Origin: an uncultured Gammaproteobacteria bacterium
GTDB lineage: Bacteria; Patescibacteriota; Microgenomatia; Daviesbacterales; UBA10151
NCBI GenBank assembly: GCA_964393545.1
Contig: CAYMUB010000059.1
Location: forward strand, 4,571-68,570
DNA: 64,000 nucleotides
Direction: 5' to 3'
Each line of letters starts with the position of its first letter. The first letter of the stretch is position 1. The position numbers and the translations under genes are program-made. Below, piece after piece: positions 7,379 through 58,525 of the stretch. A model generated the notes under the pieces. That model was not told the DNA's origin and made no database searches. It was given only the letters and a program-made list of their open reading frames with translations.

Positions 7379-7873
7379 ATGACAAAGACAAATATCGTGT
7401 CTGCAAAATTTGTAAAAAATACTACTTATCTGACTGCTAAAGGGCTTACTGAGGCAAAATCTGAGTTGGATTTTCTTAAGAAAACTAAAAGATTAGAAAT
7501 TGCCGAAAAAATCCACCAGGCCAGAGAGTATGGAGATTTAGCAGAAAATTCTGAATATGATAGTGCCATAGAAGAACAGTCTTTAACAGAAAATAGGATT
7601 TCTGAGCTGGAGAATATTTTAAAAAAAGTTAAAGTTATTGCAGATAATCACACCGAAGATTTTATCGTAATTGGTTCAACTGTCAAAATTGATATGGATG
7701 GGGAAATTGATCAATTTAAGATTGTTGGTAGAGTTGAGGCAGATCCATCTAAAAAAAGAATTTCCAATGAGTCTCCTTTGGGGATCTCACTATTGGGTGC
7801 CAAAAAAGGAGAGGTGGTTGAAGTTACAACCCCAATTGTCAGATACAAATGTAAAGTATTGGAGATATCATGA
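7379..7873 (+). CDS. greA: Transcription elongation factor GreA
   Basis: 164 aa; N-terminal coiled-coil with conserved EYDSAIEEQ... and C-terminal FKBP-like domain; classic GreA. Confidence 0.9.
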   Translation: MTKTNIVSAKFVKNTTYLTAKGLTEAKSELDFLKKTKRLEIAEKIHQAREYGDLAENSEYDSAIEEQSLTENRISELENILKKVKVIADNHTEDFIVIGSTVKIDMDGEIDQFKIVGRVEADPSKKRISNESPLGISLLGAKKGEVVEVTTPIVRYKCKVLEIS

Positions 7874-9153
7874 ACGATCTACCCTTAATTAAATTTAATC
7901 CCAAACTGCCTAAACTGTCAGCAAATGAAAAAGCTGTATTAAAACTGCTAGTTGAAGCAGGGGAATTAATTGTACCTGTATATGTAGCCCAAGGAGAAGA
8001 TGCGAAAAAGGTAAATAAAGGGGATATTGATAAAGCTGGTAAGAAATCTCCCAATCTAATCTCTCCTTACACCATTGTTGAAAAAGTAGAGGGAAAGCTT
8101 ATAGCCACTCCTTATCATATTAAATACAAAGAACTTCTAAACCCTGTTGCAGAAAAATTAGAAGAAGCAAGCAGGATAACTGAAAATAAGGACTTTAGTA
8201 AAGCTCTCAAAGTTCAAGCAAAGGCATTGTTAACTGGTTTTTACGATCAGGCAACTATAGCATGGCTCAAAGCAAAGCCGTGTATTTTAAATATTTCCAT
8301 AGGTCCGCTTCTCCATTATGATGATCGATTATACTTCTCTAAAGCTTCATACCACGCTTGGGTAGGAGTGATTGATAAAGAAGGAACTGACAAATTGAAT
8401 AATTACAAAAGCATTACCCTAAGTTCCAGGAGAACAGTGCTGGTTCCCAAAGAATGGATTAATCCAGCTAAAATTAAAACAAAAGTACTTGATGTTGTTT
8501 TATTTTCTGGTATTATGGCGAAAACAAGATTTGTAGGAGTAAATTTACCAATTGATATCGATATTATTGAAAAAGATGGAACTGAAGTTACAATTTTTAA
8601 TCAGGCTAATGATTTAAGACTGAAGGAACAAATCTTACCAAGTTTCAATAAGATATTTTCCAAAGGATTTAGACAAGGTTTTACTGAAGAAGATTTGAGA
8701 AAAGGTTATCTGTTAACAACGACTCTTCATGAATTAGCCCATAGTTACCTTAACTATAGATATTCATTTGATAGGCTACAAGATCTATTTACTTGTATTC
8801 AGGAACTTGCTGCAACCATATTAGGGCTTCGTATGGCTGGGTCTCTGCTTTTGAAAGACAGAATTACAAATAAACAATTAGAATCAATGCTTACCGCATA
8901 TATTTCAAGAACCTTCTTCCTTAGGCAAGAAAATAGAAACAATGAATTTATGAGTAAATATATTTTAGGGTGTAATATATTTATTAACTTCATGTTGGAA
9001 AATGGTGCCTTAAAACAACGCGGTAATTTAATTTTTACCAATTTTACTAAAGTATTTGTCTCATTACATGATTTATCTAATCTATTAGAAGACTTACTTT
9101 CAAGTGGGGCTAGAAAAGACGCCCAGTCTTTCGTCATACGATATACAAGATAA
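7870..9153 (+). CDS. Hypothetical protein with HExxH motif (HELAHSY), paralog A of tandem pair; putative metallopeptidase-like
   Basis: 427 aa; start overlaps greA stop (ATGA); homologous along full length to 10218..11534; HELAH motif; family not recognised. Confidence 0.7.
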   Translation: MNDLPLIKFNPKLPKLSANEKAVLKLLVEAGELIVPVYVAQGEDAKKVNKGDIDKAGKKSPNLISPYTIVEKVEGKLIATPYHIKYKELLNPVAEKLEEASRITENKDFSKALKVQAKALLTGFYDQATIAWLKAKPCILNISIGPLLHYDDRLYFSKASYHAWVGVIDKEGTDKLNNYKSITLSSRRTVLVPKEWINPAKIKTKVLDVVLFSGIMAKTRFVGVNLPIDIDIIEKDGTEVTIFNQANDLRLKEQILPSFNKIFSKGFRQGFTEEDLRKGYLLTTTLHELAHSYLNYRYSFDRLQDLFTCIQELAATILGLRMAGSLLLKDRITNKQLESMLTAYISRTFFLRQENRNNEFMSKYILGCNIFINFMLENGALKQRGNLIFTNFTKVFVSLHDLSNLLEDLLSSGARKDAQSFVIRYTR

Positions 9154-9209
9154 AGTTGCCACATTAAGTTGCATTAAAGCTCGATTGTGAGTATAATCTT
9201 TTAAATCTT

Positions 9210-10106
9210 ATGGCAACAACTAGAACTGCTGAACGTATGGGTGAATATATTGGACCGACATCCTCAAGAGTAACAGCTTTAACGTACCAAAGAGGTGAAT
9301 ATATCTATGAAGTGCAAAAGGCGACACGCTCTAATTTAGAGGGTTTAAGAACTAGAGCCATTGGATTTGAAGGACTATTAGAGTATGGGCCCTTCCGTAC
9401 TCCTGCTGAAGTCACTAGCAATATTCAGCCAGGTAGCGAAGTCATTTTTGCAAGCTATAGAGGACGATGGAGAAGAATGTTTGGTCTTCCTGCAAAAGAT
9501 GTTGGAGTAATGACTCTTGAAGTTAAAACAGCGACTATAGAAGGTAGACCAATTAAAGTCATATCTACAGGGGTAAGAGCAGTCGCGGAAAATTTTCAAA
9601 AGCACGGTATAGGCACAGACTTTGTTAGAGATGCAATTCTCAGGCATAGACCAGATGCTGTTACAGGTAGATCTAGGAATTGGAAGGTATATCGCTCGCT
9701 CGAAAAGATTGATCTTTTTAAAAATGGAAGTATTTCTCCAATTGATAAACCATTTCCTCCAGAAGCTCCAAGGGCATTAGAGCAAGTGCTTGCTAGAAGT
9801 AAAATCATAGAGATGGATTTACAAACAGGTCTTGTTAGAGACATTTATCCAAAAAAGAAGCCAAAGGATTTTACTCCTCGTAAAGGTCATGTGGCTGGTT
9901 GGAGAATTCACGATGCATTAATAGCAAAAGGTGTACCCCCAGGAGGAACCAATGGATTAAGATATTGGGTAGAGACTGATCAAGATGCGATTGATGCTGC
10001 GCTTCCTGAGTATCAAAGGCTTTTGGAACCAGAACCTCTAACGCCTAGCAAACGGCCACTTCTACAATCAATTGCAGAGAAGGTAGCAGACTTCCTTCAG
10101 GTTTGA
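9210..10106 (+). CDS. Hypothetical protein (partner X of paralog A)
   Basis: 298-aa ORF, Arg-rich, locally higher GC than neighbours; no family recognised. Confidence 0.55.
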   Translation: MATTRTAERMGEYIGPTSSRVTALTYQRGEYIYEVQKATRSNLEGLRTRAIGFEGLLEYGPFRTPAEVTSNIQPGSEVIFASYRGRWRRMFGLPAKDVGVMTLEVKTATIEGRPIKVISTGVRAVAENFQKHGIGTDFVRDAILRHRPDAVTGRSRNWKVYRSLEKIDLFKNGSISPIDKPFPPEAPRALEQVLARSKIIEMDLQTGLVRDIYPKKKPKDFTPRKGHVAGWRIHDALIAKGVPPGGTNGLRYWVETDQDAIDAALPEYQRLLEPEPLTPSKRPLLQSIAEKVADFLQV

Positions 10107-10113
10107 AAAAAGT

Positions 10114-10146
10114 CTTTTAAAAACCTTCAGTTTCAGATATACTTAA
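10114..10146. repeat. Copy 1 of ~33-bp conserved unit-terminal repeat CTTTTAAAAACCTTCAG(T/C)TTCAGATATACTT
   Basis: Near-identical to 12486..12520; lies at the end of each 2.34-kb duplicated unit. Confidence 0.7.
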
Positions 10147-10221
10147 CACAAAGAAGGAGAAGTGGTTGAGGTTACAACTCCAATTGTCAGATATAAATGT
10201 AAAGTATTGGAGATATCATGA
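10147..10221 (+). pseudogene. Relic of greA 3' end (encodes ...KEGEVVEVTTPIVRYKCKVLEIS*) carried by the tandem duplication
   Basis: ~90% nt identity to 7802..7873; frame intact but no start codon, upstream in-frame TAA at 10144; ends in the same ATGA overlap with paralog B start. Confidence 0.6.
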
Positions 10222-11534
10222 ACGATCTACCCTTAATTAAATTTAATCCCAAACTGCCTAAACTGTCAGCAAATGAAAAAGCTGTATTAAAACTGCTAGT
10301 TGAAGCAGGGGAATTAATTGTACCAATCTATCTTGAACAAGAAAATCAGATCAAAAAAATAGGTAACCTTTATCCTAAAGGAGTCAATAAAGAGAAAATT
10401 AGGATAGCTGCTAAGAAAAATCCTGAGGTTTTATCACCATATACAGTAGTTGAGGAAGTTAATGGGGAGCTGAGAGCAGTACCGTACCATATAAAGTACG
10501 CACAACTTTTAAAACCTGTTGCAGAAAAATTAAATCAGGCAAGTATGATAGCTGACAATAAAGAATTTAGTGAATTTTTAAAGTTGCAAGCAAAGGCTTT
10601 ACTGGATGGAACATATGAAGATGTTTTTGCTTCATGGCAGAAGATGAAACCTTATATTCTAGATATTTCTATTGGACCTGTAGAGCACTATGATGACAGA
10701 GTATTTTTCACCAAAGCAGCTTATCAAGCTTGGGTTGGGGTTGTTGATATGGAGGCAACAAGGAAACTCTATTTTGATAAAACTATAGTTTTAAGTGCTA
10801 GAAGAGATGTTTTAATACCGGGTGAACGGTTAGATAATTATGAGAAAGTCAAGGCAAAAGTGGATGATGTACTCTTGCTCTCAGGATTAATAGCCAGGAC
10901 AAAGTTTGTAGGGCTTAATTTACCTATGAACCTTAAGCTTGTTGAAAAGTATGGATCTGAGGTTACAATATTTAAACAAGTTAATGATTCAAGACTACAA
11001 GAGCAGATACTCCCGACTTTTAAAAAGATTTTTTCTTCGGAGTTTAGAAAAGGATATAGTTCAGAAGATTTAAGAAAAGGTAGTTTACGTTATGTTGCCT
11101 TTCATGAGTTAGCGCATAACTACTTATACTACAAAAGTTCTGCTGAGAGACTTCAGGATTTACTCCCTTCTATCTACGAACTTACTGCTACTCTTTTAGG
11201 TATGAGAATTGCTGGGTCCTTGCTCTTAAAAGATGTCCTTACCAATAAGGAGCTTGAATCAATGATTGTGGCATTCGTTTGCAGAAGCTTTGACCTTATA
11301 GAGAAAAATAAAACTAACAAATTTATGATTAATTATGCTTCCGGGGGGGCTATTTTTATTAACTTTATGCTTGAAAGTGGTGCTTTAAAACAAAAAGGAG
11401 GCATGACTATGCCTAATTTTATGAGGATTTTTGTATCATTACAGGAGTTATCATATATATTAGAACGTTTGTTATCCTCAGGTATCAAAAAAAACGTAGA
11501 GGTTTTCATAAAAAAGTACGGACATTTAAAATAA
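10218..11534 (+). CDS. Hypothetical protein with HExxH motif (HELAHNY), paralog B of tandem pair
   Basis: 438 aa; first ~36 aa identical to paralog A (100% nt identity over ~127 bp), remainder ~50% aa identity. Confidence 0.7.
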   Translation: MNDLPLIKFNPKLPKLSANEKAVLKLLVEAGELIVPIYLEQENQIKKIGNLYPKGVNKEKIRIAAKKNPEVLSPYTVVEEVNGELRAVPYHIKYAQLLKPVAEKLNQASMIADNKEFSEFLKLQAKALLDGTYEDVFASWQKMKPYILDISIGPVEHYDDRVFFTKAAYQAWVGVVDMEATRKLYFDKTIVLSARRDVLIPGERLDNYEKVKAKVDDVLLLSGLIARTKFVGLNLPMNLKLVEKYGSEVTIFKQVNDSRLQEQILPTFKKIFSSEFRKGYSSEDLRKGSLRYVAFHELAHNYLYYKSSAERLQDLLPSIYELTATLLGMRIAGSLLLKDVLTNKELESMIVAFVCRSFDLIEKNKTNKFMINYASGGAIFINFMLESGALKQKGGMTMPNFMRIFVSLQELSYILERLLSSGIKKNVEVFIKKYGHLK

Positions 11535-11598
11535 AACTTCATGCGACTTCTTCGGCATTTTGCAATATGTATGAACAAACGATATAATAACGCCCATT

Positions 11599-12468
11599 AT
11601 GACGATAGAACAAAAAGAGAGAAGGATGTTAACAAGAATGGTTAGTGGAGGAGCTGAACAGCGTGGACCTACAGCTATAGATCTTCCGAAAACAGGATAT
11701 ATTGTAGATATGTATCAAAAGGGATCTTATATTGCAGAAAAGGATGAATTAGCTAGAATAACAAAACGTCTAATTGTAAGCTCCGGTCTTTGGACTCAAG
11801 ATGTAGCAAACCAAATGGTTGAATCGGGTTTAGGTAGCAGTGATCCTGATAATACAAGCTGGCTAGGTTTTAGAAAATCAAATGCACCTCGGGGTGAATA
11901 TGATGGAGTTGCTTGGCAAGAAGAATTATATATTCCTACGGTTAGAGGATACGTGCGACTTCTTCATATGAAATTAAGAGCGTTCGTACCAGATGCTCAA
12001 GGACTTCACCTAGGAAGAACTGGTATGCAGCTTGCTCTCGGTGCACATCCTGAGGTTACTCATATTTCTCATCGAACAGGAAGTGCTGCAGCAGCACGCT
12101 CCTGGTTAGAGTCAGGAGTTTTCAGGGAAGGACGACGTTTTCCTTACGATCTTCCATTTGTTCAAGCTCCCCAGTTGCCCCAAATATTACTATGGCTTTA
12201 TGAGTTATATCATGTAAATGGAGAAAGGCCAAACCTTTCTACGGGAGTAAGTGTGGGTGATTATATCGAACAAAATAAGGCTTATATACCAGATCGAACG
12301 CACCAACCTACAATGGAAATTCTTAAATGGATGGAAGAAAAACCAACAGTATTAGTAGACGGAATGGAAGTAAAAAGGAAAGTATTAGTAGACGGAATGG
12401 AAAAAGATCCATTAGGAATGGATTTACAAAGAGGTGATTCGTTAACTGAGATTGGTGAACTCAGATAA
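11599..12468 (+). CDS. Hypothetical protein (partner Y of paralog B)
   Basis: 289-aa ORF, locally GC-rich (~50% over stretches) versus surroundings; no detectable similarity to partner X. Confidence 0.55.
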   Translation: MTIEQKERRMLTRMVSGGAEQRGPTAIDLPKTGYIVDMYQKGSYIAEKDELARITKRLIVSSGLWTQDVANQMVESGLGSSDPDNTSWLGFRKSNAPRGEYDGVAWQEELYIPTVRGYVRLLHMKLRAFVPDAQGLHLGRTGMQLALGAHPEVTHISHRTGSAAAARSWLESGVFREGRRFPYDLPFVQAPQLPQILLWLYELYHVNGERPNLSTGVSVGDYIEQNKAYIPDRTHQPTMEILKWMEEKPTVLVDGMEVKRKVLVDGMEKDPLGMDLQRGDSLTEIGELR

Positions 12469-12485
12469 AATTTGTTTAATTTCTT

Positions 12486-12520
12486 CTTTTAAAAACCTTC
12501 AGCTTCAGATATACTTTACC
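12486..12520. repeat. Copy 2 of ~33-bp unit-terminal repeat, immediately upstream of lysS
   Basis: CTTTTAAAAACCTTCAGCTTCAGATATACTTTACC vs copy at 10114. Confidence 0.7.
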
Positions 12521-12527
12521 CAATAGT

Positions 12528-14093
12528 ATGTATTGGGCAGATAGGGTTGCTAAAGAAATAATTGATTCAGGCAAATTTAAGCCATATTGGGTTGATGATA
12601 TGTTTACCCCTTCAGGTTATGCCCATATTGGTTCTTTAAGAGGGCCTTTGGTTCATGATTTAATCTATAAAGCTTTAGTTCATCAAAATCAGCAAACTAG
12701 GTTTACCTATGTAATGAATGATTTTGATCCTATAGATGGTTTACCAAAAGAACTGGAAAAAGATTTTTCCAAATACTTAGGTTTTCCCTTAAGAGTAGCT
12801 CCCTCACCTGAAAAAGGATTTGATAGTTTTGCCCAATTTTTTGCTGCTGATTTTAAAAATGTTTTAAATAGTTTAGGTATACAAGCAGAATTTTTATCTT
12901 CTTATGATATGTACAAAGAAGGTAAATTTGATGAAGCTATCAAAATTGCCCTGGACAATGTAGAAAAGATTCAGAATATTTATCAAAAAGTCAGTGGAAG
13001 CAAAAAGGCAGAGCAAGGCTGGTTGCCTTTACAAGTAGTTTGTGAAAATTGTGGCAAATTAGGTACCACCAGAGTTCATAACTTTGATGGGAAAGAAGTT
13101 GAATATACTTGTGAACTTATCATGGTTAAATGGGCTCAGGGTTGCGGATATACTGGTAGAATCTCTCCTTTTGGGGGAAAAGGAAAATTGCCCTGGAAAG
13201 TAGACTGGCCTGCTCATTGGTCAGTAATAGGTGTAACAATAGAAGGGGCTGGTAAAGACCACTCATCTGCTGGTGGTTCAAGAGATATTGCCAAAGAGTT
13301 ATGTAAGAATGTCTTTAAGATCAAGGAGCCATATAATTTGCCCTATGAATTTTTCTTAATCGGTGGTAAAAAAATGGCTTCATCTAAAGGTTTAGGTTTA
13401 AAAGCTAGAGATGCAAAACAACTTTTACCTTCAGAACTGGTCAGGTTTCTATTTGTCAGGACAGATTACAGGCAAGCTGTTGAGTTTGATCCTTTGGGTA
13501 CAATGGCTATTCCAGATTTGTTTGATGAATATGATAGATGTTACTTAGCATTTGCTAAGAAAACGGATCAAGACCTGGCAAGAGCTTTTGAAATGGCACA
13601 AGTTGGAGAATTGCCGGAAGGTGATATTAAAATTTTACCTAGGTTTAGGGATGTAGTTAATTTTGTACAAACCCCTAATGTTGATGTCTGGAAAAAGTTT
13701 GAAGAGATAAAAGGTTCAAAGTTAACTGAAGAAGAAAAAAAGATTTTGGGAGAAAGGGTAGAATACGCCAAAGTCTGGATTGAAAAATATGCCCCGGATG
13801 AATTCAGATTACAAATGTTACCTGAGTTGCCCAATTTAGCAGATACCTTAACGCAAGAACAAAAAAGTTACCTTTCAAGAGTAGTTGAAATTTTAGATTC
13901 AGCAGAGACAGCAGAAAAACTACAACTGGATTTATATAACCTTTCCAAAGAACTCAAAATAGATGCCAAAATTGCTTTTTCTGCAATATATATTTCCATG
14001 ATAGGAAAACAATTTGGACCAAAGGCTGCCTGGTTTTTATTATCTTATCCAAAGGAAAAAGTAATTGAAAGACTAAAAGAGGCAGCAAAATGA
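12528..14093 (+). CDS. lysK: Lysyl-tRNA synthetase, class I (archaeal/spirochaete type)
   Basis: N-terminus MYWADRVAKEII...TPSGYAHIGSLRG matches class I LysRS HIGH-region signature; KMSKS-like GGKKMASSKG; 521 aa. Confidence 0.8.
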   Translation: MYWADRVAKEIIDSGKFKPYWVDDMFTPSGYAHIGSLRGPLVHDLIYKALVHQNQQTRFTYVMNDFDPIDGLPKELEKDFSKYLGFPLRVAPSPEKGFDSFAQFFAADFKNVLNSLGIQAEFLSSYDMYKEGKFDEAIKIALDNVEKIQNIYQKVSGSKKAEQGWLPLQVVCENCGKLGTTRVHNFDGKEVEYTCELIMVKWAQGCGYTGRISPFGGKGKLPWKVDWPAHWSVIGVTIEGAGKDHSSAGGSRDIAKELCKNVFKIKEPYNLPYEFFLIGGKKMASSKGLGLKARDAKQLLPSELVRFLFVRTDYRQAVEFDPLGTMAIPDLFDEYDRCYLAFAKKTDQDLARAFEMAQVGELPEGDIKILPRFRDVVNFVQTPNVDVWKKFEEIKGSKLTEEEKKILGERVEYAKVWIEKYAPDEFRLQMLPELPNLADTLTQEQKSYLSRVVEILDSAETAEKLQLDLYNLSKELKIDAKIAFSAIYISMIGKQFGPKAAWFLLSYPKEKVIERLKEAAK

Positions 14094-14683
14094 ATATAAG
14101 TGATCTTAAAAAAATCTTAAAAGTGTTTTTAACTTTGCAATGGGCTAAAGAATTACCAAGACAGGGTTTTATTGCTTTAGGTTTTAAAAGAAATGAAGCA
14201 GATTCAGTAGCAGCCCACTCTTTTACAACGGCTCTTTTAGGGTATTTCTTGGCCAAACAATTACAAAAAGAAGGTACAAAAATTGACTGTGATAAAGTAT
14301 TGAAAATGGGTCTAGTACATGATATTGGGGAAACAATTGTGGGAGATGTGGGAACTTTTGTCAAAGGTATGGCTGGGGGAGTATTTAAAAATATTGAGGA
14401 AGAAGGGGTAAAAGCCTTAGTTGAGGATTTGGATTCCAAAGATGAGATATTAAAGCTTGTTTCGGAATATAACGGGAGAAATACTTTGGAGGCCAGAGTG
14501 GTTAAAACTGCAGATAATTTAGATGCGCTAGCTCAAGCTAAAGGTGTACCTGGAGCCCAAGATGCGTTAAAATATTTTAAGCAGATGACTCATATTACAA
14601 AATTTGACTGGCATAAAACTGCTATAGATTTAATACTAAGTAATAAGGTGGAGCCGGAAAGAGGCTGGCAGGAAAAAGAATAG
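14090..14683 (+). CDS. HD-domain phosphohydrolase (YfbR-like 5'-nucleotidase family)
   Basis: H...HD motif (HSF...VHDIGE), ~197 aa. Confidence 0.65.
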   Translation: MNISDLKKILKVFLTLQWAKELPRQGFIALGFKRNEADSVAAHSFTTALLGYFLAKQLQKEGTKIDCDKVLKMGLVHDIGETIVGDVGTFVKGMAGGVFKNIEEEGVKALVEDLDSKDEILKLVSEYNGRNTLEARVVKTADNLDALAQAKGVPGAQDALKYFKQMTHITKFDWHKTAIDLILSNKVEPERGWQEKE

Positions 14684-14685
14684 TT

Positions 14686-15918
14686 ATGTTAGACATAAAT
14701 TTTATCAAAGAAAACTTAGCAAAAGTTAAAAAAGATATTGTAGACAGGAAGACAGACGTTGATCTGGATAAACTGTTATCTTTAGATGAACAAAGAAAAG
14801 AATTAATTCAACAAGTTGATGCCATCAGGGCCAGAAGAAATGAAGCAGCCAAAGCAAAAGATATTGAATCTGGTAAGAAAATAAAGACCGAGTTGGGTGG
14901 ACTTGAGAAACAATTAGCAGACATAGAAAAAGAGTGGAATATGTTAATGTTTCAAGTGCCAAATATTCTGCTGGATGAAGTTCCCAGGGGTGATGTAACT
15001 CAAAATAAAATTCTCAGAAAAGAAGGGGAAATACCCAAGTTTTCCTTTATTCCTAAAGACCATATAACACTTGGAAAGCTTTTAAATATTATAGATTTTG
15101 ACAGAGGAGTAAAGGTGGGAGGATTTAGAGGTTATTATTTAAAAAATGAAGGTGCCAGATTGCACTGGGCTATCTTGCAATTTGCCTTTGATCATTTAAT
15201 ACAAAAAGGTTTTAATCCTGTTGTCCCACCGGTAATAAATAAAAGATTTGCTTTAGTTGGAGGAGGACAATTTCCTTGGGGTGAGGAAGATACATACAAG
15301 GTTTCAGAAGAAGATTTTTTAGTTGGGACAGCTGAGATTCCTTTGATGGCCATGCATTCTGATGAGACTTTTGAGTTAAAAGATTTACCAAAAAAATATG
15401 TAGGAATATCTTCTTGTTTTAGAACAGAAATTGGTTCTTATGGCAAAGATACTAAAGGTTTATATAGAGTTCATGAATTTTATAAAGTAGAGCAGGTAGT
15501 CTTGTGTGAGGCGGATGAGCAAGAGTCTTTAGGTTTTTTTGAAGAATTGCAAGATAATTCAGAGGATATTTTGCAGGAATTAGGTCTACCCTATCAGGTA
15601 GTTATTCTATCCAGTCAAGATATAGGTAAAAAATCAGCTTTAACATATGATATAGAAACATATATGGCAGCCAGGAATGGCTATGGTGAAACTCACTCCA
15701 ATTCAATAGTCTTAGACTTTCAAACCAGAAGACTTAAAATTAAATACAAGGATCAAGATGGAAAAGTTAAATTTTGTCACGCCTTAAATAATACGGCTAT
15801 TGCCTCACCCAGAATTTTAATTCCTATTTTGGAAAACTTCCAGACTGAGGATGGATCTGTAAAAATTCCAGAAGTTTTGCAAAAGTACACCGGCTTTTCA
15901 GAGATTAACCCTAAATAG
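14686..15918 (+). CDS. serS: Seryl-tRNA synthetase
   Basis: N-terminal coiled-coil tRNA-binding arm, class II motifs; 410 aa. Confidence 0.88.
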   Translation: MLDINFIKENLAKVKKDIVDRKTDVDLDKLLSLDEQRKELIQQVDAIRARRNEAAKAKDIESGKKIKTELGGLEKQLADIEKEWNMLMFQVPNILLDEVPRGDVTQNKILRKEGEIPKFSFIPKDHITLGKLLNIIDFDRGVKVGGFRGYYLKNEGARLHWAILQFAFDHLIQKGFNPVVPPVINKRFALVGGGQFPWGEEDTYKVSEEDFLVGTAEIPLMAMHSDETFELKDLPKKYVGISSCFRTEIGSYGKDTKGLYRVHEFYKVEQVVLCEADEQESLGFFEELQDNSEDILQELGLPYQVVILSSQDIGKKSALTYDIETYMAARNGYGETHSNSIVLDFQTRRLKIKYKDQDGKVKFCHALNNTAIASPRILIPILENFQTEDGSVKIPEVLQKYTGFSEINPK

Positions 15919-50381: not shown

Positions 50382-51899
50382 TTGTATATAATTAAGATAG
50401 TGAAATTTGTTATCAGATATAAAACTGAATTAATTATATTCTCAGTCTTAATAGTTACTTACTTCATATTGAGGTTGCCCAATTTAACTTTGCAGCCAAT
50501 ATTTGCAGATGAGGCAATTTATATTCGTTGGGCTCAGGTAATGAGATCTGAACCTACCTTGCGGTTTTTATCTCTTTCTGATGGGAAAACACCTCTTTTT
50601 ATGTGGATAATGATTCCTTTTTTTAAGATCTTTAGTGATCCTTTATATGCAGGTAGGTTTTTATCAGTAATTTCAGGTTTCTTTACCTTACTTGGAGTAT
50701 TCTTCTTATCAAAAAAGGTATTTAATATTAGAACTGCTCTTTGGGCATCTCTTCTGTATGTAATTACGCCATACACTGTTTTCTTTGACCGCATGGCTTT
50801 GGTTGACCCAATGTTATCGGCGTTTACTATCTGGTCAATTTATTTTGCTATTTGGTTAATAAGAAGTCTCAGGTTAGATATTGCCATGATTTTGGGATAT
50901 TTATTAGGAGGAGCACTTCTGACTAAAACTCCAGCTATGATGAATATACTGGTTCTACCGATTTCACTTTTAGGTCTTAGAAAGAATAAGCAGGATAAAT
51001 ATCCTCTTTTGAGAGCTTTAACACTTTTGGCAGTAGCTGCTTTAATTGCCTTAGTAATATATAACTTGTTAAGGTTAGGTCCAGGATTTCAACAACTTTC
51101 TGCCCGGAATGCTGATTATGTTTTTTCACCCTCAGAATTAAAAGGAAGAATCCTGGATCCTTTTATTCCCCATTTTCATGATATTTCTGATTGGTTTCCT
51201 AAACTTTTTACTACTCCGGTCTTAATTTTTGTATTTGTGGGGATTTTTTACTCCTTGTTAACATTTAATAAAACAGGATTAATTATGTTAATTTGGGTGA
51301 TAGTTCCTTTTATGCTGGAAATGGCTTTTTTGAGAACATTTACAGCCCGTTATCTTTTAACCTCTATTGCTCCATTTTTAATCTTTGCGGCATTTGGTTT
51401 AACTAAAGTTTTAGAAAGAATAAGAATAAAAAATTCTCTAAAATTTACCATAGCATTGATAGTAATTTTACCGTTAGCTTTAAAGTTTGATTACCAGCTA
51501 ATTAGCAGTCCTCCGCCAACTGATTTACCAAAAGAAGAGAGAAGAGGTTATTTTGAAGAGTGGACTGCAGGTTATGGATTAAAACAAATAGGCTTATTTT
51601 TGGATGAAGAGACAAAAAAGAAAAAAGTAGTAGTAGGAACAGCTGGATTTTTTGGAACTTTACCTGATGGATTGTATATTTATCTTGATAAATCAGATAT
51701 TTCAGTTGTCGGAAGCTCAGCGACAGTTTCTGCCCAGATCAGAAAAGCTGCCCAGGAACATCCCACATATTTTGTAGGTAACAAAAAAGATTTAGAAAAT
51801 AGTATTAAGAATGTAAAATTGATCTTTGAATATCCTAAAGCCAAATCATTAGATGATTTAAAACAGGATTCAACTGTCCTTTACCAAGTTTTACCCTAG
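50382..51899 (+). CDS. GT-C glycosyltransferase, ArnT/PMT family (COG1807)
   Basis: 505 aa polytopic; first periplasmic loop carries the DE motif (IFADEAIYIRWAQ) characteristic of GT39/GT83. Confidence 0.7.
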   Translation: MYIIKIVKFVIRYKTELIIFSVLIVTYFILRLPNLTLQPIFADEAIYIRWAQVMRSEPTLRFLSLSDGKTPLFMWIMIPFFKIFSDPLYAGRFLSVISGFFTLLGVFFLSKKVFNIRTALWASLLYVITPYTVFFDRMALVDPMLSAFTIWSIYFAIWLIRSLRLDIAMILGYLLGGALLTKTPAMMNILVLPISLLGLRKNKQDKYPLLRALTLLAVAALIALVIYNLLRLGPGFQQLSARNADYVFSPSELKGRILDPFIPHFHDISDWFPKLFTTPVLIFVFVGIFYSLLTFNKTGLIMLIWVIVPFMLEMAFLRTFTARYLLTSIAPFLIFAAFGLTKVLERIRIKNSLKFTIALIVILPLALKFDYQLISSPPPTDLPKEERRGYFEEWTAGYGLKQIGLFLDEETKKKKVVVGTAGFFGTLPDGLYIYLDKSDISVVGSSATVSAQIRKAAQEHPTYFVGNKKDLENSIKNVKLIFEYPKAKSLDDLKQDSTVLYQVLP

Positions 51900-51900
51900 C

Positions 51901-53598
51901 ATGCCAAAAATTTTTAGCAGAAATTTCATATTTCCTCTATGTTTAGTTATTTTAACAATTCCTCTTTTCTACTTACTAATCCGCCCTGGATTTTTTCCCA
52001 TGCAGGATGATCTGCAAGCTTTTAGAGTTCAACAGATGGTTAAGTGTTTGAAGGATTTTCAAATTCCCTGCAGGTGGATTCCTGATATGGGTTATCAATA
52101 TGGATATCCTCAATTTAACTTTTATCCGCCCAGTGTTTTTTATATTGGTGGACTATTAAATTTAATAGGTATTCAGGTAATTGATGCAGTAAAGATATTA
52201 TTTATTTTAGGATTTATATTATCGGCTTTAACAATGTTTCTTTTTTTAAAAGATTTGCTAGGGAAGTGGCCTGCTTTTGTAGGTGCGATGCTCTATAGCA
52301 TTGTTCCATATAAGGCTACTGAAGTGTATGTTAGAGGGTCCTTGTCAGAGTTTTGGGCTTTTGTATTTTTTCCGCTTATTTTTTGGTCTAGCTTACAACT
52401 AGTTAAAACCGGAAAAATAAAGTATATTGCCTGGCTTGCCTTTTCAGTTGGATTACTGTTGTTGACTCATAATCTGATGTCATTTATATTTTTACCAATC
52501 TTTGGAGTATGGGTAATTACTTTAGCGTTAGTTTGGAGAAAATGGCAAGAGCTGCCAAAAATAATTATCGCTAGTTTACTGGGCTTAGGGGTAGCTGCCT
52601 TTTTTACTATCCCTGTTATTTTTGAGAATAAATATGCTCATATAGAAACTTTAACTAGTGGATATTTTGACTATCGTCAACACTTTGTAGATTTAAAGCA
52701 ATTATTTTTATCTAATCATTTTGGGTATGGGTCTTCCTACTTAGGACCCAATGATGATCTTTCCTTGTCAACAGGAATAGTGCAATGGATACTTGGTTTT
52801 TTAGCAGTAATACTTGTCTTGTTTAATTTTAAAAAAGATAAAAAAATAACTCTCATTACTTTAATACTTGCGATAAGCGTCTTAGGAGTTTTGTTTTTAA
52901 TGCATCAAAAATCATCATTTATCTGGGAGAAACTACCTGGCTTAAATTTATTGCAATTTCCCTGGAGGTTTTTATCAGATAGCACTTTTCTTTTATCTAT
53001 CTTGGATGCTATTGCTATCTATAAAATAAACAGTTTCAGTAAGAATTTAGCTATCGGAGTGGGGGTAATTTCCATAGTTACTCTATTCATCCTGCACGGA
53101 TTTTTCTTTCAGCCAAAATCATGGCTTAATATTTCTGATCAAGATAAATTTTCTGGAGAGTCTTGGGAAAAGCAATTAACTATCAGCATTTTTGATTATT
53201 TACCAATTTATGCCAAATTTCCGCCAAACAAAAAAGCTCCTGAACAACCAGAAACTTTGGAAGGAAAGGTTGAATTTATAAACTACCAAAAGTACAGTGA
53301 TTCTCAAACAGGAGAAATAAAGGTAGAGAAAAATTCTACCTTAAGATTGCCTTTATTTGATTTTCCAGGCATGGAAGTTACAGTAGATGGTGAAAAAGTA
53401 GCCCATTGGCATGATGATTGCAGAGAACAAGAATATTGTCTGGGACTGATTACCTTCATGGTAAATGAGGGCAGTCACAAAATTAAAGCCGCGCTAAAAG
53501 ATACGCCAGTACGATTACTTAGTAATATAATCAGTATTATAAGTATTTCTATTGTGGGAATACTTTTTTTTAAAAAACATGAGAAATATACTAGTTAA
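51901..53598 (+). CDS. Tandem paralog 1 of a polytopic membrane protein family (putative GT-C-like)
   Basis: 565 aa; conserved FQIPCRWIPDMGY...QFPWRFLSD motifs shared with the next three genes. Confidence 0.6.
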   Translation: MPKIFSRNFIFPLCLVILTIPLFYLLIRPGFFPMQDDLQAFRVQQMVKCLKDFQIPCRWIPDMGYQYGYPQFNFYPPSVFYIGGLLNLIGIQVIDAVKILFILGFILSALTMFLFLKDLLGKWPAFVGAMLYSIVPYKATEVYVRGSLSEFWAFVFFPLIFWSSLQLVKTGKIKYIAWLAFSVGLLLLTHNLMSFIFLPIFGVWVITLALVWRKWQELPKIIIASLLGLGVAAFFTIPVIFENKYAHIETLTSGYFDYRQHFVDLKQLFLSNHFGYGSSYLGPNDDLSLSTGIVQWILGFLAVILVLFNFKKDKKITLITLILAISVLGVLFLMHQKSSFIWEKLPGLNLLQFPWRFLSDSTFLLSILDAIAIYKINSFSKNLAIGVGVISIVTLFILHGFFFQPKSWLNISDQDKFSGESWEKQLTISIFDYLPIYAKFPPNKKAPEQPETLEGKVEFINYQKYSDSQTGEIKVEKNSTLRLPLFDFPGMEVTVDGEKVAHWHDDCREQEYCLGLITFMVNEGSHKIKAALKDTPVRLLSNIISIISISIVGILFFKKHEKYTS

Positions 53599-55207
53599 AA
53601 ACTTTCCTATTTTAATTATTCTGGGATTATCGATATTAATCGTCTGGCCTTTATTTTTACACGGCTATTTTTCTCATCATGATGATTTACAGGTCATGAG
53701 AATTTTTGAGATGAGGAAGTGTTTTTTTGATTTGCAGATTCCCTGCCGATGGGTGCCGGATATGGGTTTTGGCAATGGTTTTCCTTTATTTAATTACTAT
53801 GGAGTATTCCCTTATTATATTGGGGCGGTCATAAGTTACTTACTGGGATTTATTGGGGCAGCCAAGGCTCTATTTTTTATCCCTTTGGTTTTCGGAGGTA
53901 TTTCAATGTATTTTCTAGCAAGAGAATTAGCAGGAAAATGGGTTGGTTTAACAGCAGGAGCCTTATATTTATTTGCTCCTTACAGATCTTTAGATACTTA
54001 TGTCAGAGGGGCAGTTTCTGAAAGTTTTTCTTTGGCTATAATTCCTTTAGTTTTTTATTTTGGTTTAAAACTGGCTAGAGAAAAAACAACATATAATTTT
54101 ACTTTATTTTCTTTAACATTAGGAGCTTTTTTAATCACCCACAACATTATGGATATGTTATTTGCTCCTTTATTGGTTCTTTTTTTGATTTATATAAAGA
54201 TCATAGAAAAATCAAAAAATATGAAAAACTTAATCTTTGGTACAATCTTAGGATTTGGTTTATCGGCCTTTTTTTTAATCCCTGCTTTCCTGGAAAAAAA
54301 CTTAATTCAAACAGAAGCTTTAACCAGATTTGATTTAGATTTTAGGGTGCATTTTGTAACAGTTAAACAATTATTCTTAGATAGATTTTGGGGTTATGGA
54401 GCATCAATTTTAGGACCGTTTGATACCATCTCATTTCAGATAGGTTGGCCTCACTGGTGGTTGGTTGTTGTTGGATTCTTGCTAGTTCTAAAAAATAAAA
54501 AACTATTGCCCTTAATATTTGTCTTTTTAGTTTCAATTTTTATGGCTCACAATAAATCTGCTTTTGTTTGGGAAAAAATTGGCATACTAAGATATACCCA
54601 ATTTCCCTGGAGATTTTTATCTATAGCGATATTTTCTTCAAGTCTGATTGGAGGACTTGTGATAACCAGTGTTAAAAAAGAATGGCAAAAGTACCCGGCC
54701 ATCTTAATTGTTATTTTAACTGTGTTGTTAAATTATAGTTACTTTAAACCGGATAAATTTTATTTTGATTTAACAGATGAAAAAAAATTATCAGGAATTT
54801 TATGGGATGATCAAAGAAGAGCAGCTATTTTAGATTATTTGCCAAAGGAAGCTTATGAACCAAAAGAATCTGCACCTGATAAGCCACTGGTGATTGAGGG
54901 GCAGTCTGATATTAGAAACTTTGTGGTCAGATCAAACTCTTGGAGATTCGATGTTGATGTAAAAAAAGCTGCTAAGATTGAGATACCAGTTTTTGATTTT
55001 CCTAATTGGGAGGTTTTTGTAAATGGGAAAAAAGTATCCCACAATAAGGATAATTTACTAAAGAGAATTCAGTTTAACTTGGAGCAAGGGAACTATCAAG
55101 TAACTGGTAAGTTTAAAGATACCTTTATAAGACAAATATCTAATTTATTAACACTATTTTCTTTGGTGGGATTACTGTTATATGTTAAAAAACTTAAAAA
55201 AATCTAA
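53552..55207 (+). CDS. Tandem paralog 2 of the same membrane protein family
   Basis: 551 aa; LQIPCRWVPDMGFGNGFPLFNYY, QFPWRFLS; start may be internal Met ~53579. Confidence 0.6.
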   Translation: MWEYFFLKNMRNILVKNFPILIILGLSILIVWPLFLHGYFSHHDDLQVMRIFEMRKCFFDLQIPCRWVPDMGFGNGFPLFNYYGVFPYYIGAVISYLLGFIGAAKALFFIPLVFGGISMYFLARELAGKWVGLTAGALYLFAPYRSLDTYVRGAVSESFSLAIIPLVFYFGLKLAREKTTYNFTLFSLTLGAFLITHNIMDMLFAPLLVLFLIYIKIIEKSKNMKNLIFGTILGFGLSAFFLIPAFLEKNLIQTEALTRFDLDFRVHFVTVKQLFLDRFWGYGASILGPFDTISFQIGWPHWWLVVVGFLLVLKNKKLLPLIFVFLVSIFMAHNKSAFVWEKIGILRYTQFPWRFLSIAIFSSSLIGGLVITSVKKEWQKYPAILIVILTVLLNYSYFKPDKFYFDLTDEKKLSGILWDDQRRAAILDYLPKEAYEPKESAPDKPLVIEGQSDIRNFVVRSNSWRFDVDVKKAAKIEIPVFDFPNWEVFVNGKKVSHNKDNLLKRIQFNLEQGNYQVTGKFKDTFIRQISNLLTLFSLVGLLLYVKKLKKI

Positions 55208-56858
55208 AAAACTTCTGGGATTTTTGATAGCCGGAATTTTAATAATCCCAGCAGTCTGGGCCTTATTTGTGCCGGGATTTTATGGAGCTTCAGATGATAT
55301 TCATATTGGCTGGTTGTTTGAATTTCACAAAACTTTAATGATGGGACAGATTCCTCCCAGATTTGTACCTGATTTAAGTTTTGGTTTTGGTTATCCTTTA
55401 TTTAATTTTGTTTTTCCATTACCCTTTTATATTGCTGAAATTATTCATCTTTTTTTAGGATTTAATTTAGTTGACAGTATCAAAGCTTTATTTTTTCTGA
55501 CCATCCCTTTATCAGGTTTATTTATGTATTTTTTGCTTCGTGAGTACTCGGGTAGATCATTTAGTCTGGCAGGGGCAGTTTTATATATTTATACCCCATA
55601 TAGATCAGTAGACTTATATATCAGAGGGGCAATAGGGGAGATAGTAAGTTTTGTTTTTCTCCCCCTGATATTATTATCAGTTATTAAGCTATCTAAAACT
55701 AGAGGTTTAAAATGGGTAGGGATAGGTGCTATCTCGCTTGCTTCCCTAGTCTTGTCGCACAATATAACAGGATACATGTTTTTTCCTTTTGTAGCTTTAT
55801 TATTTTTATTCCAAACTTTTTTTATCTCTGCGAAAAAACAGTTTATAACTAACTTTTTCCTAATGATTTTTTTAGGACTTTTAATAAGTATTTATTTTTG
55901 GCTACCGGCAATAGTGGATAGCAACTTAATGAAATATGATACTGTTTTCAATTTTGTAGATCACTTTCCTACCATTTCCCAATTGATAACTCCTTATTGG
56001 GGTTATGGAGCATCTGTACCAGGACCCTATGATGGAATGTCTTTTTTCCTGGGAATAACTAATTTACTGGTCTTGGGAATTGGAATAATTTCTATTTTCT
56101 TGTTTTGGAAAAAAATAGAAAAAGAAAAAAGGATTATTTTTATCTGGTCTTTAATATGTATAAGCTGGTCTATGCTCTTAATGAATTATCGGTCTATCTT
56201 TATATGGTCAATTGTCCCAATGTTGCCATATTTTCAGTTTCCCTGGAGATTTTTGATATTAACTACCTTTGCTATACCAATCCTGATAATAATTCTAGAA
56301 AAACTGCCTTTTAATAAATTTATCCCGGCTGTTTTGATTGTTTTAACACTTGTCACATCTGGAAGTTATTTTAGACCACAAGATTTTTTAGGTAGAAAGG
56401 ATGACTATTTTCTTAACCGGTATATCCCAAGTCCTGTGGCTAGTGATGAATATAAAAAAACGCAGGAAGAATATTTAAGATTACCCATAGGAACTCAGGT
56501 TAGGCCAGATAAAATTTACCCCAGAGTCACAAACAATACTAATATTAAAGAGGTTGTAAGTACTGATGATCTTAATGCTCAGATAAAGGTGGAATCAGAT
56601 AAAGGAGCAGTCATAAGTTATAATAAATATTCTTTCCCAGGCTGGGAAGTAAGAATTGATAATCAGGTTGTAGAACACAAAACAGGATCACCATTCGGCC
56701 AGTTAACTTTCTTTGTTCCTTCAGGCCAACATATGATTGAAGTATCCTTTAAAGAAGGCACATTTAAGAAAATACTTGACGCTATATCTTTGGTTGCCTT
56801 TTTAGTATCATTAAGAATGGCATGGACTCGATTAAAAAAATATGGCCCTTCCTCGTAG
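55182..56858 (+). CDS. Tandem paralog 3 of the same membrane protein family
   Basis: 558 aa; QIPPRFVPDLSFGFGYPLFNF, FQFPWRFLIL. Confidence 0.6.
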   Translation: MLKNLKKSKKLLGFLIAGILIIPAVWALFVPGFYGASDDIHIGWLFEFHKTLMMGQIPPRFVPDLSFGFGYPLFNFVFPLPFYIAEIIHLFLGFNLVDSIKALFFLTIPLSGLFMYFLLREYSGRSFSLAGAVLYIYTPYRSVDLYIRGAIGEIVSFVFLPLILLSVIKLSKTRGLKWVGIGAISLASLVLSHNITGYMFFPFVALLFLFQTFFISAKKQFITNFFLMIFLGLLISIYFWLPAIVDSNLMKYDTVFNFVDHFPTISQLITPYWGYGASVPGPYDGMSFFLGITNLLVLGIGIISIFLFWKKIEKEKRIIFIWSLICISWSMLLMNYRSIFIWSIVPMLPYFQFPWRFLILTTFAIPILIIILEKLPFNKFIPAVLIVLTLVTSGSYFRPQDFLGRKDDYFLNRYIPSPVASDEYKKTQEEYLRLPIGTQVRPDKIYPRVTNNTNIKEVVSTDDLNAQIKVESDKGAVISYNKYSFPGWEVRIDNQVVEHKTGSPFGQLTFFVPSGQHMIEVSFKEGTFKKILDAISLVAFLVSLRMAWTRLKKYGPSS

Positions 56859-58525
56859 GTTTAGCTTTGTCTATTAGTTTGCTCTGGCCTATTTTTGTTG
56901 CCCCAACCTTCACCCGCCACGACGATGTGGAAGTGATCAGATTATATGAAATGGACCGCTGTTTTAAAGATCATCAGATCCCCTGTCGCTGGGTTCCAGA
57001 CTTGGGTGGAATGTATGGGTATCCGCTTTTTAACTACTATGCCCCTTTACCCTATTACTTCGGAGAACTTATCTATTTTATAACTCATAGTTTAATAATT
57101 TCTTCAAAAGTCATGTTTATTGTCTCTTTTTTGGGTGCTTATATTTTTATGTATCTTTTAGCAAGAAAATTCTGGGGTAGTTTGGGTGGCAGTTTATCTG
57201 CCATTTTTTATAGCTTTGCTCCCTATCATGCTTTGGATTTTTATGTCAGAGGAGCAATGGGTGAGATGTGGGGATTAATGTTTTTCCCGGCAGTTTTTTG
57301 GGCAGCGGCTAAGCTTAATGAAGAACTGAAAATTTCTAATTTACTACTACTAGCAATTTTCCTGGCAGCTCTTTTTACCTCACATAATATTTCTGCTATG
57401 GTTTTTTTACCCTTTTATCTAATATGGAATTTAGTATTTTTCTGCAAAAGCAGAAGCAAAAAATTTCTTGTCTATGGGGTTGGGGCACTTATTTTAGGAA
57501 CTTTACTTTCAGCGTTCTATCTTTTTCCGGCCAACTTTGAAAAAGAGTTAGTTCATGTTGAAACAACAGTCATAGGATACTTTTCCTACACAGAACATTT
57601 TAAAGGACTTAGAAGACTTCTTTTGGATAGGGCTTGGGCTTATGGGCCTTCTGTTAGAGAAGTGCCTGGAGGGGAGCGGGATTTATTGTCTTATCAAATT
57701 GGATGGGTTCATCTGTTAGGTTTAGTTTTGGCATTAGTTTCAGTTAAGACCCTTTGGAATAAAAATAGACCACTGAGTTGGGTGATAATCTTTTGCTCCG
57801 CCTCAGTTGTATTCCTTGTTTTTATGATCCATCCCAGATCGGTATTTGTTTGGGGATTAATTGAACCTTTAAAATATTTACAGTTCCCCTGGAGGTTATT
57901 ACAACCTTTAATATTTTTTATCTCACTGGCAGCAGGAAGTATATTTGTTTGGGTAAGAAAGAAGAAGCAAATATGGTTGGTACTGGTTTTCTTGGTTGTG
58001 GTATTTAATTTCTCTTATTTTAAGCCTGAAAAGTTCATTCAAACTAGTGATGAAAAACTTTTAACAGGTAGTGAGTGGGAAAGACAAATAATGCGCTCCA
58101 TCTTTGATTTTTTGCCTAAATCTGCTAAAGAACCTCCTGCCCAGCTTGCTAAAGAAAGGTATGAGGTGTTAACAGGGAATAGTAAAGTCTATGATTTCAA
58201 AGAGGGAACAAACTGGTTAAATTTTAAAACAGAAACACAAACACATACTATCATCCGCTTATCCCAGTATTATTTTCCTGATTGGAAGATTCTTGTTGAC
58301 GGAAAGGAAGTAAAATTCGATTATAAAAACAATAGCTTGGGACTTATGACAATTCTTTTGGGAACTGGTAACCATTTTGTAGAAGCTAGATTATATGATA
58401 CTCCGATTAGGTCTATCTCTAATACGATAACCACTATGGCAATTTCTTTGACTTTAATTATATTTATACTGCATTTTGCAAAAGTAAGAAAATGGGTGGG
58501 ATATTATAGAAAGAGAATAAACTAA
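56822..58525 (+). CDS. Tandem paralog 4 of the same membrane protein family
   Basis: 567 aa; QIPCRWVPDLGGMYGYPLFNYY, LQFPWRLLQ. Confidence 0.6.
   Translation: MDSIKKIWPFLVGLALSISLLWPIFVAPTFTRHDDVEVIRLYEMDRCFKDHQIPCRWVPDLGGMYGYPLFNYYAPLPYYFGELIYFITHSLIISSKVMFIVSFLGAYIFMYLLARKFWGSLGGSLSAIFYSFAPYHALDFYVRGAMGEMWGLMFFPAVFWAAAKLNEELKISNLLLLAIFLAALFTSHNISAMVFLPFYLIWNLVFFCKSRSKKFLVYGVGALILGTLLSAFYLFPANFEKELVHVETTVIGYFSYTEHFKGLRRLLLDRAWAYGPSVREVPGGERDLLSYQIGWVHLLGLVLALVSVKTLWNKNRPLSWVIIFCSASVVFLVFMIHPRSVFVWGLIEPLKYLQFPWRLLQPLIFFISLAAGSIFVWVRKKKQIWLVLVFLVVVFNFSYFKPEKFIQTSDEKLLTGSEWERQIMRSIFDFLPKSAKEPPAQLAKERYEVLTGNSKVYDFKEGTNWLNFKTETQTHTIIRLSQYYFPDWKILVDGKEVKFDYKNNSLGLMTILLGTGNHFVEARLYDTPIRSISNTITTMAISLTLIIFILHFAKVRKWVGYYRKRIN

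Follow-up and report, generated by a model that had tools for sequence, protein, structure and literature searches.

An identical 130-nucleotide block at the 5' ends of two stacked peptidase genes in a Candidatus Daviesbacteria genome, a probable footprint of gene conversion

Between the genes for the transcript cleavage factor GreA and a lysyl-tRNA synthetase (LysRS, gene lysS), a groundwater bacterium belonging to Candidatus Daviesbacteria carries two genes for predicted HExxH zinc peptidases, here called peptidases A and B, whose 5' ends contain a block of 130 nucleotides (nt) that is the same in both. The locus lies in a 64,000-nt stretch of contig CAYMUB010000059.1 (assembly GCA_964393545.1), hereafter the window, and its named database relatives are almost all Candidatus Daviesbacteria, within the Patescibacteria or Candidate Phyla Radiation (CPR). 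The region consists of two head-to-tail modules, each composed of a greA tail, a peptidase gene, a partner gene (orfX1 or orfX2) and a short non-coding element, D8 (Table 1). We compared it with related loci of the Daviesbacteria greA-lysS region, labelled L001 to L121; L122 and L123 are Logan contigs of the window itself.

Alignment of positions 7780-10160 with 10130-12520 gave a sole perfect run of 130 nt, at an offset of 2348, which spans the final eight codons of greA, stop included (the last 24 nt of that gene fall within the block), a ribosome-binding site (GGAG), the stop/start overlap ATGA, and codons 1 to 35 of the peptidase together with two bases of codon 36. An initial annotation of this DNA had described about 127-130 bp of base-for-base identity ending abruptly after the first 36 codons. 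The identity and its abrupt end were confirmed, with a length of exactly 130 nt in both copies, and codon 36 proved to be shared in two of its bases only. To the right, the first mismatches follow ...GTACC at 7977/10325, only 26 of the next 52 nt are identical, and identity beyond the edge, about 50-60% in general, is 33-60% in 45-nt windows, consistent with the sharp drop to weak similarity that had been noticed. To the left, homology that was overlooked in that annotation runs 46 nt further, to 7801/10149, with mismatches at 7805, 7813, 7822, 7831 and 7846, and the perfect block is thus nested in a homology tract of 176 nt. The last greA codon (7868-7870/10216-10218), which lies within the block, is TCA (Ser) in both copies. 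In the 35 other greA tails scanned, the terminal codon was AAA (most relatives), AAG, GAA, ACA or AGA, and TCA occurred in none; relative to AAA, all three bases are substituted, within the spacer that separates the ribosome-binding site from the peptidase ATG. Judged by this comparison, the TCA codon is a derived state common to both copies.

The second-longest perfect run between the A and B regions was 18 nt, and the longest run in 20,000 column permutations averaged 16.4 nt, with a maximum of 40 nt. Using site-specific match frequencies from 35 orthologues, the probability that all 105 coding sites would be identical was approximately 10^-23.7. Identity was 130/130 in the block and about 62% elsewhere in the A/B comparison. 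No other locus, of about 125 compared, was more than 86% identical to the block, the closest being the heads (the conserved 5' parts of the peptidase gene) of the in-clade loci L081 and L044, at 85-86%. Synonymous differences were also distributed unevenly within the homology tract, with four in the 15 codons of the left 46 nt as compared to none in the 43 codons of the block (Fisher p = 0.003).

Table 1. Features of the greA-lysS interval and their positions in the window
Feature	Position	Strand	Evidence
greA, transcript cleavage factor	7379..7873	+	Pfam GreA_GreB_N and GreA_GreB
Homology tract, copy 1 (greA tail and peptidase A head, 176 nt)	7801..7976	+	Repeat family D1, alignment, mismatch positions
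Identical block, copy 1 (130 nt)	7847..7976	+	Alignment, run statistics
Peptidase A, 427 amino acids, predicted dipeptidyl-peptidase III/M49-like HExxH zinc peptidase	7870..9153	+	Weak PF03571 match, family profile against PDB 6eom, tree
orfX1, 298 amino acids, fast-evolving partner gene	9210..10106	+	No Pfam, PADLOC or NCBIfam match
D8a, copy of the conserved lysS-promoter-like element, now upstream of module 2	10113..10151	+	Repeat D8, promoter scan
Module junction, CAA microhomology	10149..10151	+	D8 end against greA 7801-7803; reproduced in Logan contig L122
greA-tail remnant, 24 codons including the stop, non-functional, preceding peptidase B	10149..10221	+	Five differences from the resident tail
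Identical block, copy 2 (130 nt)	10195..10324	+	Alignment
Peptidase B, 438 amino acids, predicted dipeptidyl-peptidase III/M49-like	10218..11534	+	Pfam, alignment, tree (groups with L039/L040)
orfX2, 289 amino acids, very divergent partner, apparently of the orfX family	11599..12468	+	Matches to clustered downstream genes
D8b, lysS-promoter-like element in the normal position	12485..12523	+	Repeat D8, promoter scan
lysS, class I lysyl-tRNA synthetase, right conserved flank of the variable interval	12528..14093	+	Pfam tRNA-synt_1f; 85% amino acid identity with L044

The block includes a ribosome-binding site and a start codon, and the head corresponds to an N-terminus conserved throughout the peptidase family, with a mean of 24.8 of 32 residues identical (approximately 78% at the amino acid level). 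These features would suit a block that is kept identical by nucleotide-level selection, acting on a 5' regulatory RNA, the translation-initiation region or an N-terminal targeting peptide; the first and the last of these had also been suggested from the sequence. However, an Rfam search of the block returned no match at E <= 1, and the folding check that had been proposed, when run, found the block no more stable than shuffled sequences (z-score, +0.21). Synonymous sites of the head vary as freely as those of the body: among 595 orthologue pairs, third-position identity at codons for the same amino acid was 0.48 for the head and 0.52 for the body, as compared to 31/32 and 116/222, respectively, between A and B. 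Because there is no Rfam match, no excess of folding, free synonymous variation and at most 86% identity elsewhere, the block does not appear to be under nucleotide constraint, and the other arrays that could be compared (see below) have diverged heads. The proposal of a targeting or secretion tag shared by variable bodies also failed, as the head is family-wide, the bodies are homologous over their full length, and a Pfam search of both peptidases gave only the M49-peptidase match, with no secretion-associated domain. We consider selection on the block an exceedingly improbable cause of its identity. By these comparisons, the block is a recombination footprint and not a constrained element.

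Peptidases A and B are 60% identical end to end over their full length and 57% identical outside the head. Peptidase B matched PF03571 at 24.0 bits (cut-off, 21), and peptidase A at 19.9 bits, just under the cut-off. A profile of the family matched PDB 6eom (E = 4e-32) and 5zum, which is named dipeptidyl-peptidase III (4e-24); residues H287, H291 and E312 fall in invariant columns, and the HExxH region is conserved. These matches place A and B in a family related to the M49 dipeptidyl-peptidase III. In a tree of the peptidase bodies, A grouped with L038 (75%) and then with L001/L002/L021, while B grouped with L039/L040 (78-79%). The best body relatives were P0002/L038 for A, and P0121/L039 and P0122/L040 for B; in the database, more than 100 proteins resemble A more closely than B does, and likewise for B in relation to A. 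No identity cliff was present at the head/body boundary when A was compared with L038 or B with L039/L040. Simple tandem duplication followed by divergence in place was rejected, because the two copies are not each other's closest relatives and because the differences in the greA-tail remnant follow its former reading frame. The term "paralogs" used in the initial annotation needs correction: the tree and alignments identify A and B not as copies diverged in place but as heterologous versions, from different clades, of a usually single-copy gene, stacked in tandem.

A polymorphic toxin or Rhs-like gene was also considered and rejected, because the end-to-end alignment of A and B at 60% leaves no non-homologous alternative C-terminal domains. 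Neither a PADLOC scan nor the A/B alignment supported a defence system or toxin. A distant peptidase paralog, 26-33% identical to A and B, occurs in the interval in L081 (5267-6619), L059, L029, L031/L106 and L032. In L081 it directly follows greA, where the window has peptidase A; elsewhere it is downstream of the ordinary copy.

The gene order in the related loci is histidine kinase (on the opposite strand), greA, peptidase, orfX, lysS, HD gene and serS. A single peptidase of the family was present in the interval in 31 of 37 reference-genome loci. The six exceptions were L029, L031 and L032, where the second, distant paralog is located downstream; L035 and L036, which have distant homologues outside the greA context; and L037, where the contig ends within the gene. 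Judged by the flanks, the closest relatives of the window are L081 (histidine kinase, 83%; GreA, 89%; HD protein, 96%; SerRS, 88% amino acid identity) and L044 (82%, 83%, 90% and 86%, respectively; LysRS, 85%). L081 and the window are collinear at about 85% nucleotide identity up to the greA stop codon, and again at about 82% starting with the HD gene. In their peptidase bodies, however, L081 and L044 are only 55-64% identical to A or B, whereas their heads are 82-93% identical at the nucleotide level, and an identity cliff at approximately codon 36 was present in every in-clade comparison. Because heads stay similar while bodies differ sharply between close relatives, the head, as judged from these alignments, behaves as conserved flank, and the body plus orfX as a swappable cassette. 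Flanking conservation was evident on both sides, amounting to approximately 85-90% nucleotide identity for greA and the head and 82-96% amino acid identity for lysS, the HD gene and serS with in-clade relatives. A neighbour-joining tree of GreA, HD and SerRS was star-like (78-82% identity) and unfit for an argument from congruence; therefore, identity ranks of single flanking genes were used.

Neither orfX1 nor orfX2 matched a family in Pfam, PADLOC or NCBIfam, a homologue search gave two relatives only, and the two proteins can barely be aligned with each other. Single-linkage clustering placed 61 of the 76 genes immediately downstream of these peptidases in one fast-evolving family, to which orfX1 and orfX2 appear to belong, based on their matches to clustered genes in the loci. 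An orfX gene always follows the peptidase, shows 24-51% identity between species with approximately 80% identical housekeeping proteins, and co-varies only loosely with the peptidase clades. An AlphaFold model of orfX built from four sequences was unusable (mean predicted local distance difference test score, 36). Within orfX2, positions 12331-12396 contain a 33-nt tandem duplication (28/33 identical), which encodes MEEKPTVLVDG and MEVKRKVLVDG.

The two D8 copies are identical at 36 of 39 positions, and the first copy ends exactly at the start of the greA remnant. In a promoter scan, D8 fit a sigma-70-like pattern, TTTAAA-16 nt-TATACT, and most of the related loci compared have it conserved immediately before lysS. 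D8 is probably the lysS promoter, an extra copy of which is now present before module 2. This non-coding element of approximately 30-40 nt (TTTTAAAAACCTTCAGYTTCAGATATACTT) is 80-90% conserved across species with only about 75% protein identity, regardless of whether a class I or class II lysS is downstream, and it holds a central TTCAG-N-TTCAG repeat. At this same syntenic position, after orfX and D8 and before the HD gene and serS, 48 loci encode a class II LysRS and 17, including the window, a class I LysRS, never both; the close relative L081 has class II lysS where the window has class I. Fragments of class II lysS are found at array junctions in L041, L071 and L081.

Heterologous arrays were found at the same site in four other assemblies (L041, L059, L071 and L081). 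At each array junction, D8 with 0 to 65 lysS codons is joined to 8 to 46 greA-tail codons, and all of the breakpoints are different. Where both parents could be read, the junctions exhibited microhomologies of 3-9 nt: CAA in the window, common to the end of D8 and greA 7801-7803; A6 in L081; TTCT in L059; and CCTTCTAAA in L071. In the three arrays that could be scored, the greA remnants differ from the resident greA tails almost exclusively at synonymous sites, the ratio of synonymous to non-synonymous differences being 4:1 (window), 9:0 (L081) and 13:2 (L059), or 26:3 in total; by codon position 1/2/3, these differences number 1/0/4, 0/0/9 and 2/1/13, respectively. Such nearly synonymous-only divergence implies that the tails diverged within functional greA genes in other genomes. 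Together with the different clades of the bodies, this bias points to the addition of modules by import from other genomes. In the left 48 nt, the resident greA tail differs at five sites from the window remnant and likewise at five from the tail of L081, as compared to 7-13 sites from the tails of more distant lineages. Because the remnant is as far from the resident tail as that of L081 is, the donor was probably an in-clade relative.

A different history would begin with a recent tandem duplication in place, from the greA tail to the lysS promoter, after which homologous recombination, in the conserved head on one side and in the lysS promoter or lysS on the other, exchanged the interior of one copy for a foreign peptidase-orfX body, leaving the block as the unreplaced remainder. 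The junction does have the classic form of a tandem duplication, the remnant and D8a are 93% and 92% identical to the resident sequences as compared to at most 84% with other loci, and the in-clade comparisons suggest body swaps at the head/body boundary. However, decay in place should affect all codon positions, in contrast to the synonymous bias of the remnants in the greA frame (four of five differences in the window, and the ratios above for L081 and L059). Furthermore, the five differences are confined to the left 46 nt, the 130 nt of the block having none, an asymmetry with the p value of 0.003 given above, and none of the five arrays has the near-identical modules that are expected of young duplications. 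We regard this history as unlikely.

Only the L041 and L059 arrays had two 5' ends that could be compared. The longest perfect run between these ends was 18 nt in L041 and 21 nt in L059, and the heads were 62-80% identical. As these arrays lack a long tract, identity of the 5' ends is not a regular property of arrays but a sporadic recent event in the lineage of the window.

Other details of the arrays were observed. L041 (Logan SRR22388256, 7,092 nt) contains two complete modules and, at the contig end, the greA-tail leader of a third; an unannotated open reading frame (ORF) of 475 amino acids lies between modules 1 and 2. The greA-tail leaders of its modules 2 and 3 match each other at 22 of 23 positions and differ from the greA tail of the same locus at 5 of 24 positions. 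In L059 (~7830-8004) and L071 (~1630-1850), a lysS head runs on in frame into the greA tail, forming chimeric ORFs of approximately 54 and 68 codons that combine a LysRS N-terminus with a GreA C-terminus and have an ATGA overlap with the next peptidase start; in L081, the lysS-greA fusion is out of frame. The window remnant is preceded by an in-frame TAA, and its sole candidate start is a GTG located 2 nt after a Shine-Dalgarno sequence. Retention of the remnant as a translated upstream ORF was rejected as the main cause, since it fails to explain the amino acid conservation generally.

The window derives from a metagenome-assembled genome (MAG), and the block is an exact repeat that assemblies with short k cannot traverse, which raises the possibility that the tandem order or the identity arose from a chimeric path through a two-strain metagenome graph. 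Two Logan contigs, each assembled from a single run, address this issue. L122 (run ERR4904393, two samples) equals window positions 7947-10224, and L123 (run ERR3478687) equals positions 10295-15210, each at 100% identity. Three of the four edges of the block are marked by a contig end that falls exactly 30 nt inside it, namely the right edge of copy A (L122 start), the right edge of copy B (L123 start) and the left edge of copy B (L122 end). Logan presumably uses k = 31, hence k-1 = 30, and we interpret the contig ends as branching of the assembly graph at the exact repeat. Thus, the exact repeat, its edges, the junction of D8a with the remnant including its five variant bases, and both peptidase bodies are confirmed to be real in the raw data of at least two runs. 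In addition, identity is not something that an assembler creates; with just 3 nt in common with either parent, the junction could not have been generated by a k-mer overlap; and heterologous arrays of the same design are present in four other assemblies that lack a long repeat. An assembly artefact is therefore very unlikely. The concern over a collapsed or chimeric assembly that was raised in the initial annotation has been answered for the repeat, its edges and the junction, while the pairing of entries and exits across the block comes from the MAG contig. Exact-protein look-ups for GreA and peptidase A, which might have linked them, returned no record, and the contig that carries the histidine kinase is too short to reach greA.

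The assembly graph also fits a path of greA, head and B together with a closed loop of 2,348 nt (A body, orfX1, D8a, greA remnant and head). A deletion variant with a circle, or extra copies of module 1, may also exist, as both are compatible with the graph.

We favor, with moderate confidence, the explanation that the block is the footprint of a recent, non-reciprocal homologous exchange (gene conversion), in which the 5' end of one peptidase-orfX module was copied onto that of the other, heterologous module stacked with it between greA and lysS. The recombination between the copies that was proposed initially is supported by identical heads on bodies of different clades, by the unique TCA codon, and by the uneven distribution of synonymous differences (p = 0.003). 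The comparative data suggest that, in most Daviesbacteria loci, the interval between greA and the lysS promoter holds one peptidase-orfX module, with greA, the first ~35 peptidase codons and the lysS promoter serving as conserved flank and the body and orfX varying even between close relatives. A second module would then have been joined head-to-tail, by an illegitimate join at the 3-nt CAA microhomology that connects the end of the lysS promoter to a point 69 nt before the greA stop; the greA remnant would come from a functional greA of a related genome. The other end was presumably formed by homologous recombination in a conserved flank, as in homology-facilitated illegitimate recombination. 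Entry of module 1 through an anchor in greA would be expected to leave a switch of ancestry within that gene, and none was observed, the window being nearer to L081 than to L038 along the whole gene. Finally, the statistics above indicate that the two heads were homogenised later over 130 nt, from 7846/7847 on the left to codon 36 on the right, where usable homology collapses just before a hypervariable, indel-rich stretch. The tract itself is without function.

It is also possible, but not likely, that later conversion within the genome played no part in the identity, which would instead have arisen as a by-product of array formation or have been inherited from a recombining population. In one version, a circularised or already-arrayed module integrated by a crossover in the head, with heteroduplex repair to the end of homology; others involve unequal crossing-over, or a conspecific donor that already shared the 130-nt segment. 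The right edge of the block coincides exactly with the boundary at which homology collapses in all in-clade comparisons, where a crossover intermediate is expected to stall, a direct repeat flanking module 1 is the product of circle integration by a single (Campbell-type) crossover, and the graph fits the 2.35-kb loop equally well. On the other hand, a single reciprocal crossover leaves donor and recipient differences on either side, and there are none over the 130 nt; the remnant on the left is about 10% diverged; and the absence of a head tract from the other comparable arrays means that array formation alone does not create one.

Several points weigh against later gene conversion within the genome. 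The heterogeneity between the left part of the tract and the block depends on five differences only. The block is about equidistant from the relatives of A (L038, 77/95) and of B (L039, 76/95), and the diagnostic sites favour neither direction of copying nor any particular number of events. No close strain (>90% identity) was found with which the events could be dated or polarised; an exact-match scan of Joint Genome Institute metagenome contigs for the 23-mer at the cliff (GAAGCAGGGGAATTAATTGTACC) gave 0 matches. The pairing of greA with A and of the remnant with B across the repeat comes from the deposited MAG contig only, the independent assemblies breaking there. Lastly, the identity could predate stacking, if donor and recipient shared the segment in one recombining population.

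Gene conversion between duplicated genes is familiar in bacteria, for example between tufA and tufB of Salmonella and among rRNA operons. The window tract resembles such cases in being perfect and sharp-edged, in having a phylogeny discordant with the rest of the gene, and in that selection is not needed to explain it. In contrast to these old whole-length duplicates, the partners in the window are heterologous (57% amino acid identity) and were brought together by stacking, and only 130 nt at the extreme 5' end were homogenised. The minimal mobile elements of Neisseria are variable cassettes, located between conserved genes, that are exchanged by homologous recombination in their flanks. The Daviesbacteria interval is similar in holding alternative content at one site between housekeeping genes without dedicated mobility genes, but it differs in that its alternatives are diverged forms of a single two-gene module, along with class I or class II lysS, and several genomes stack them.

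Homology-facilitated illegitimate recombination (de Vries & Wackernagel 2002; Prudhomme et al. 2002; Meier & Wackernagel 2003, as cited in PMC5361080; see also PMC3240628) likewise places foreign DNA beside a conserved anchor, with the other end at a microhomology of 3-9 nt, and results in insertion, not replacement. It has been proposed for effector-immunity arrays of Vibrio cholerae (PMC5361080). The present case differs in that the process was deduced from sequence alone, in an uncultured CPR bacterium, and in that the inserted DNA is a homologous module, so that the product resembles a tandem duplication. In V. cholerae type VI secretion system clusters, effector-immunity arrays form by sequential insertion, and C-terminal displacement occurs at Rhs loci (Kirchberger et al. 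2017, PMC5361080). The greA-lysS interval shares with these an integrase-free hot spot with a conserved 5' anchor and variable downstream modules from other strains, remnants of displaced genes, and same-genome modules that are not each other's closest relatives. Unlike the V. cholerae loci, the peptidase bodies of the window are homologous over their full length, rather than alternative toxin domains, and whole modules are intact; there is no sign of secretion, toxicity or immunity, and nearly all of the Daviesbacteria loci surveyed carry the gene at this position.

Elsewhere in the window, positions 50382-58525 contain five successive genes for large membrane proteins with PMT_2, YfhO or PTPS_related matches (glycosyltransferase-like), four of which are tandem paralogs at 51901-58525 with a spacing of approximately 1.6 kb and overlapping ends. 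This run is followed by a gene for a Wzx-type polysaccharide transporter (58530-59993).

The tract itself is an ordinary gene-conversion footprint, and it is clearly documented. With respect to annotation, peptidases A and B should not be taken as lineage-specific paralogs. The synonymous-only divergence of the greA remnants provides a simple, reusable test that distinguishes imported modules from duplications diverged in place. As two perfect direct repeats of 130 nt that lie 2,348 nt apart, the blocks are a good substrate for deletion or amplification of module 1, and they predict structural instability of this module and ambiguous assembly at the locus. More broadly, and as a tentative proposal that we think more apt to be wrong than right, the greA-lysS interval of Daviesbacteria would be an integrase-free cassette hot spot, in which the peptidase-orfX pair and the LysRS class are swapped and stacked between lineages, with the greA tail/peptidase head and the lysS promoter/head as anchors; the peptidase-orfX pair would be under diversifying, conflict-type selection like that of effector-immunity arrays, and the 130-nt repeats would make module 1 excisable or amplifiable. 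Five independent heterologous arrays and the alternation of class I and class II lysS mark the site as a recurrent hot spot. Natural competence among CPR bacteria has been shown only for Saccharibacteria (PMC10633639). The tract documents homologous and illegitimate recombination on the chromosome of an uncultured CPR bacterium, a group for which direct evidence of these processes is scarce.

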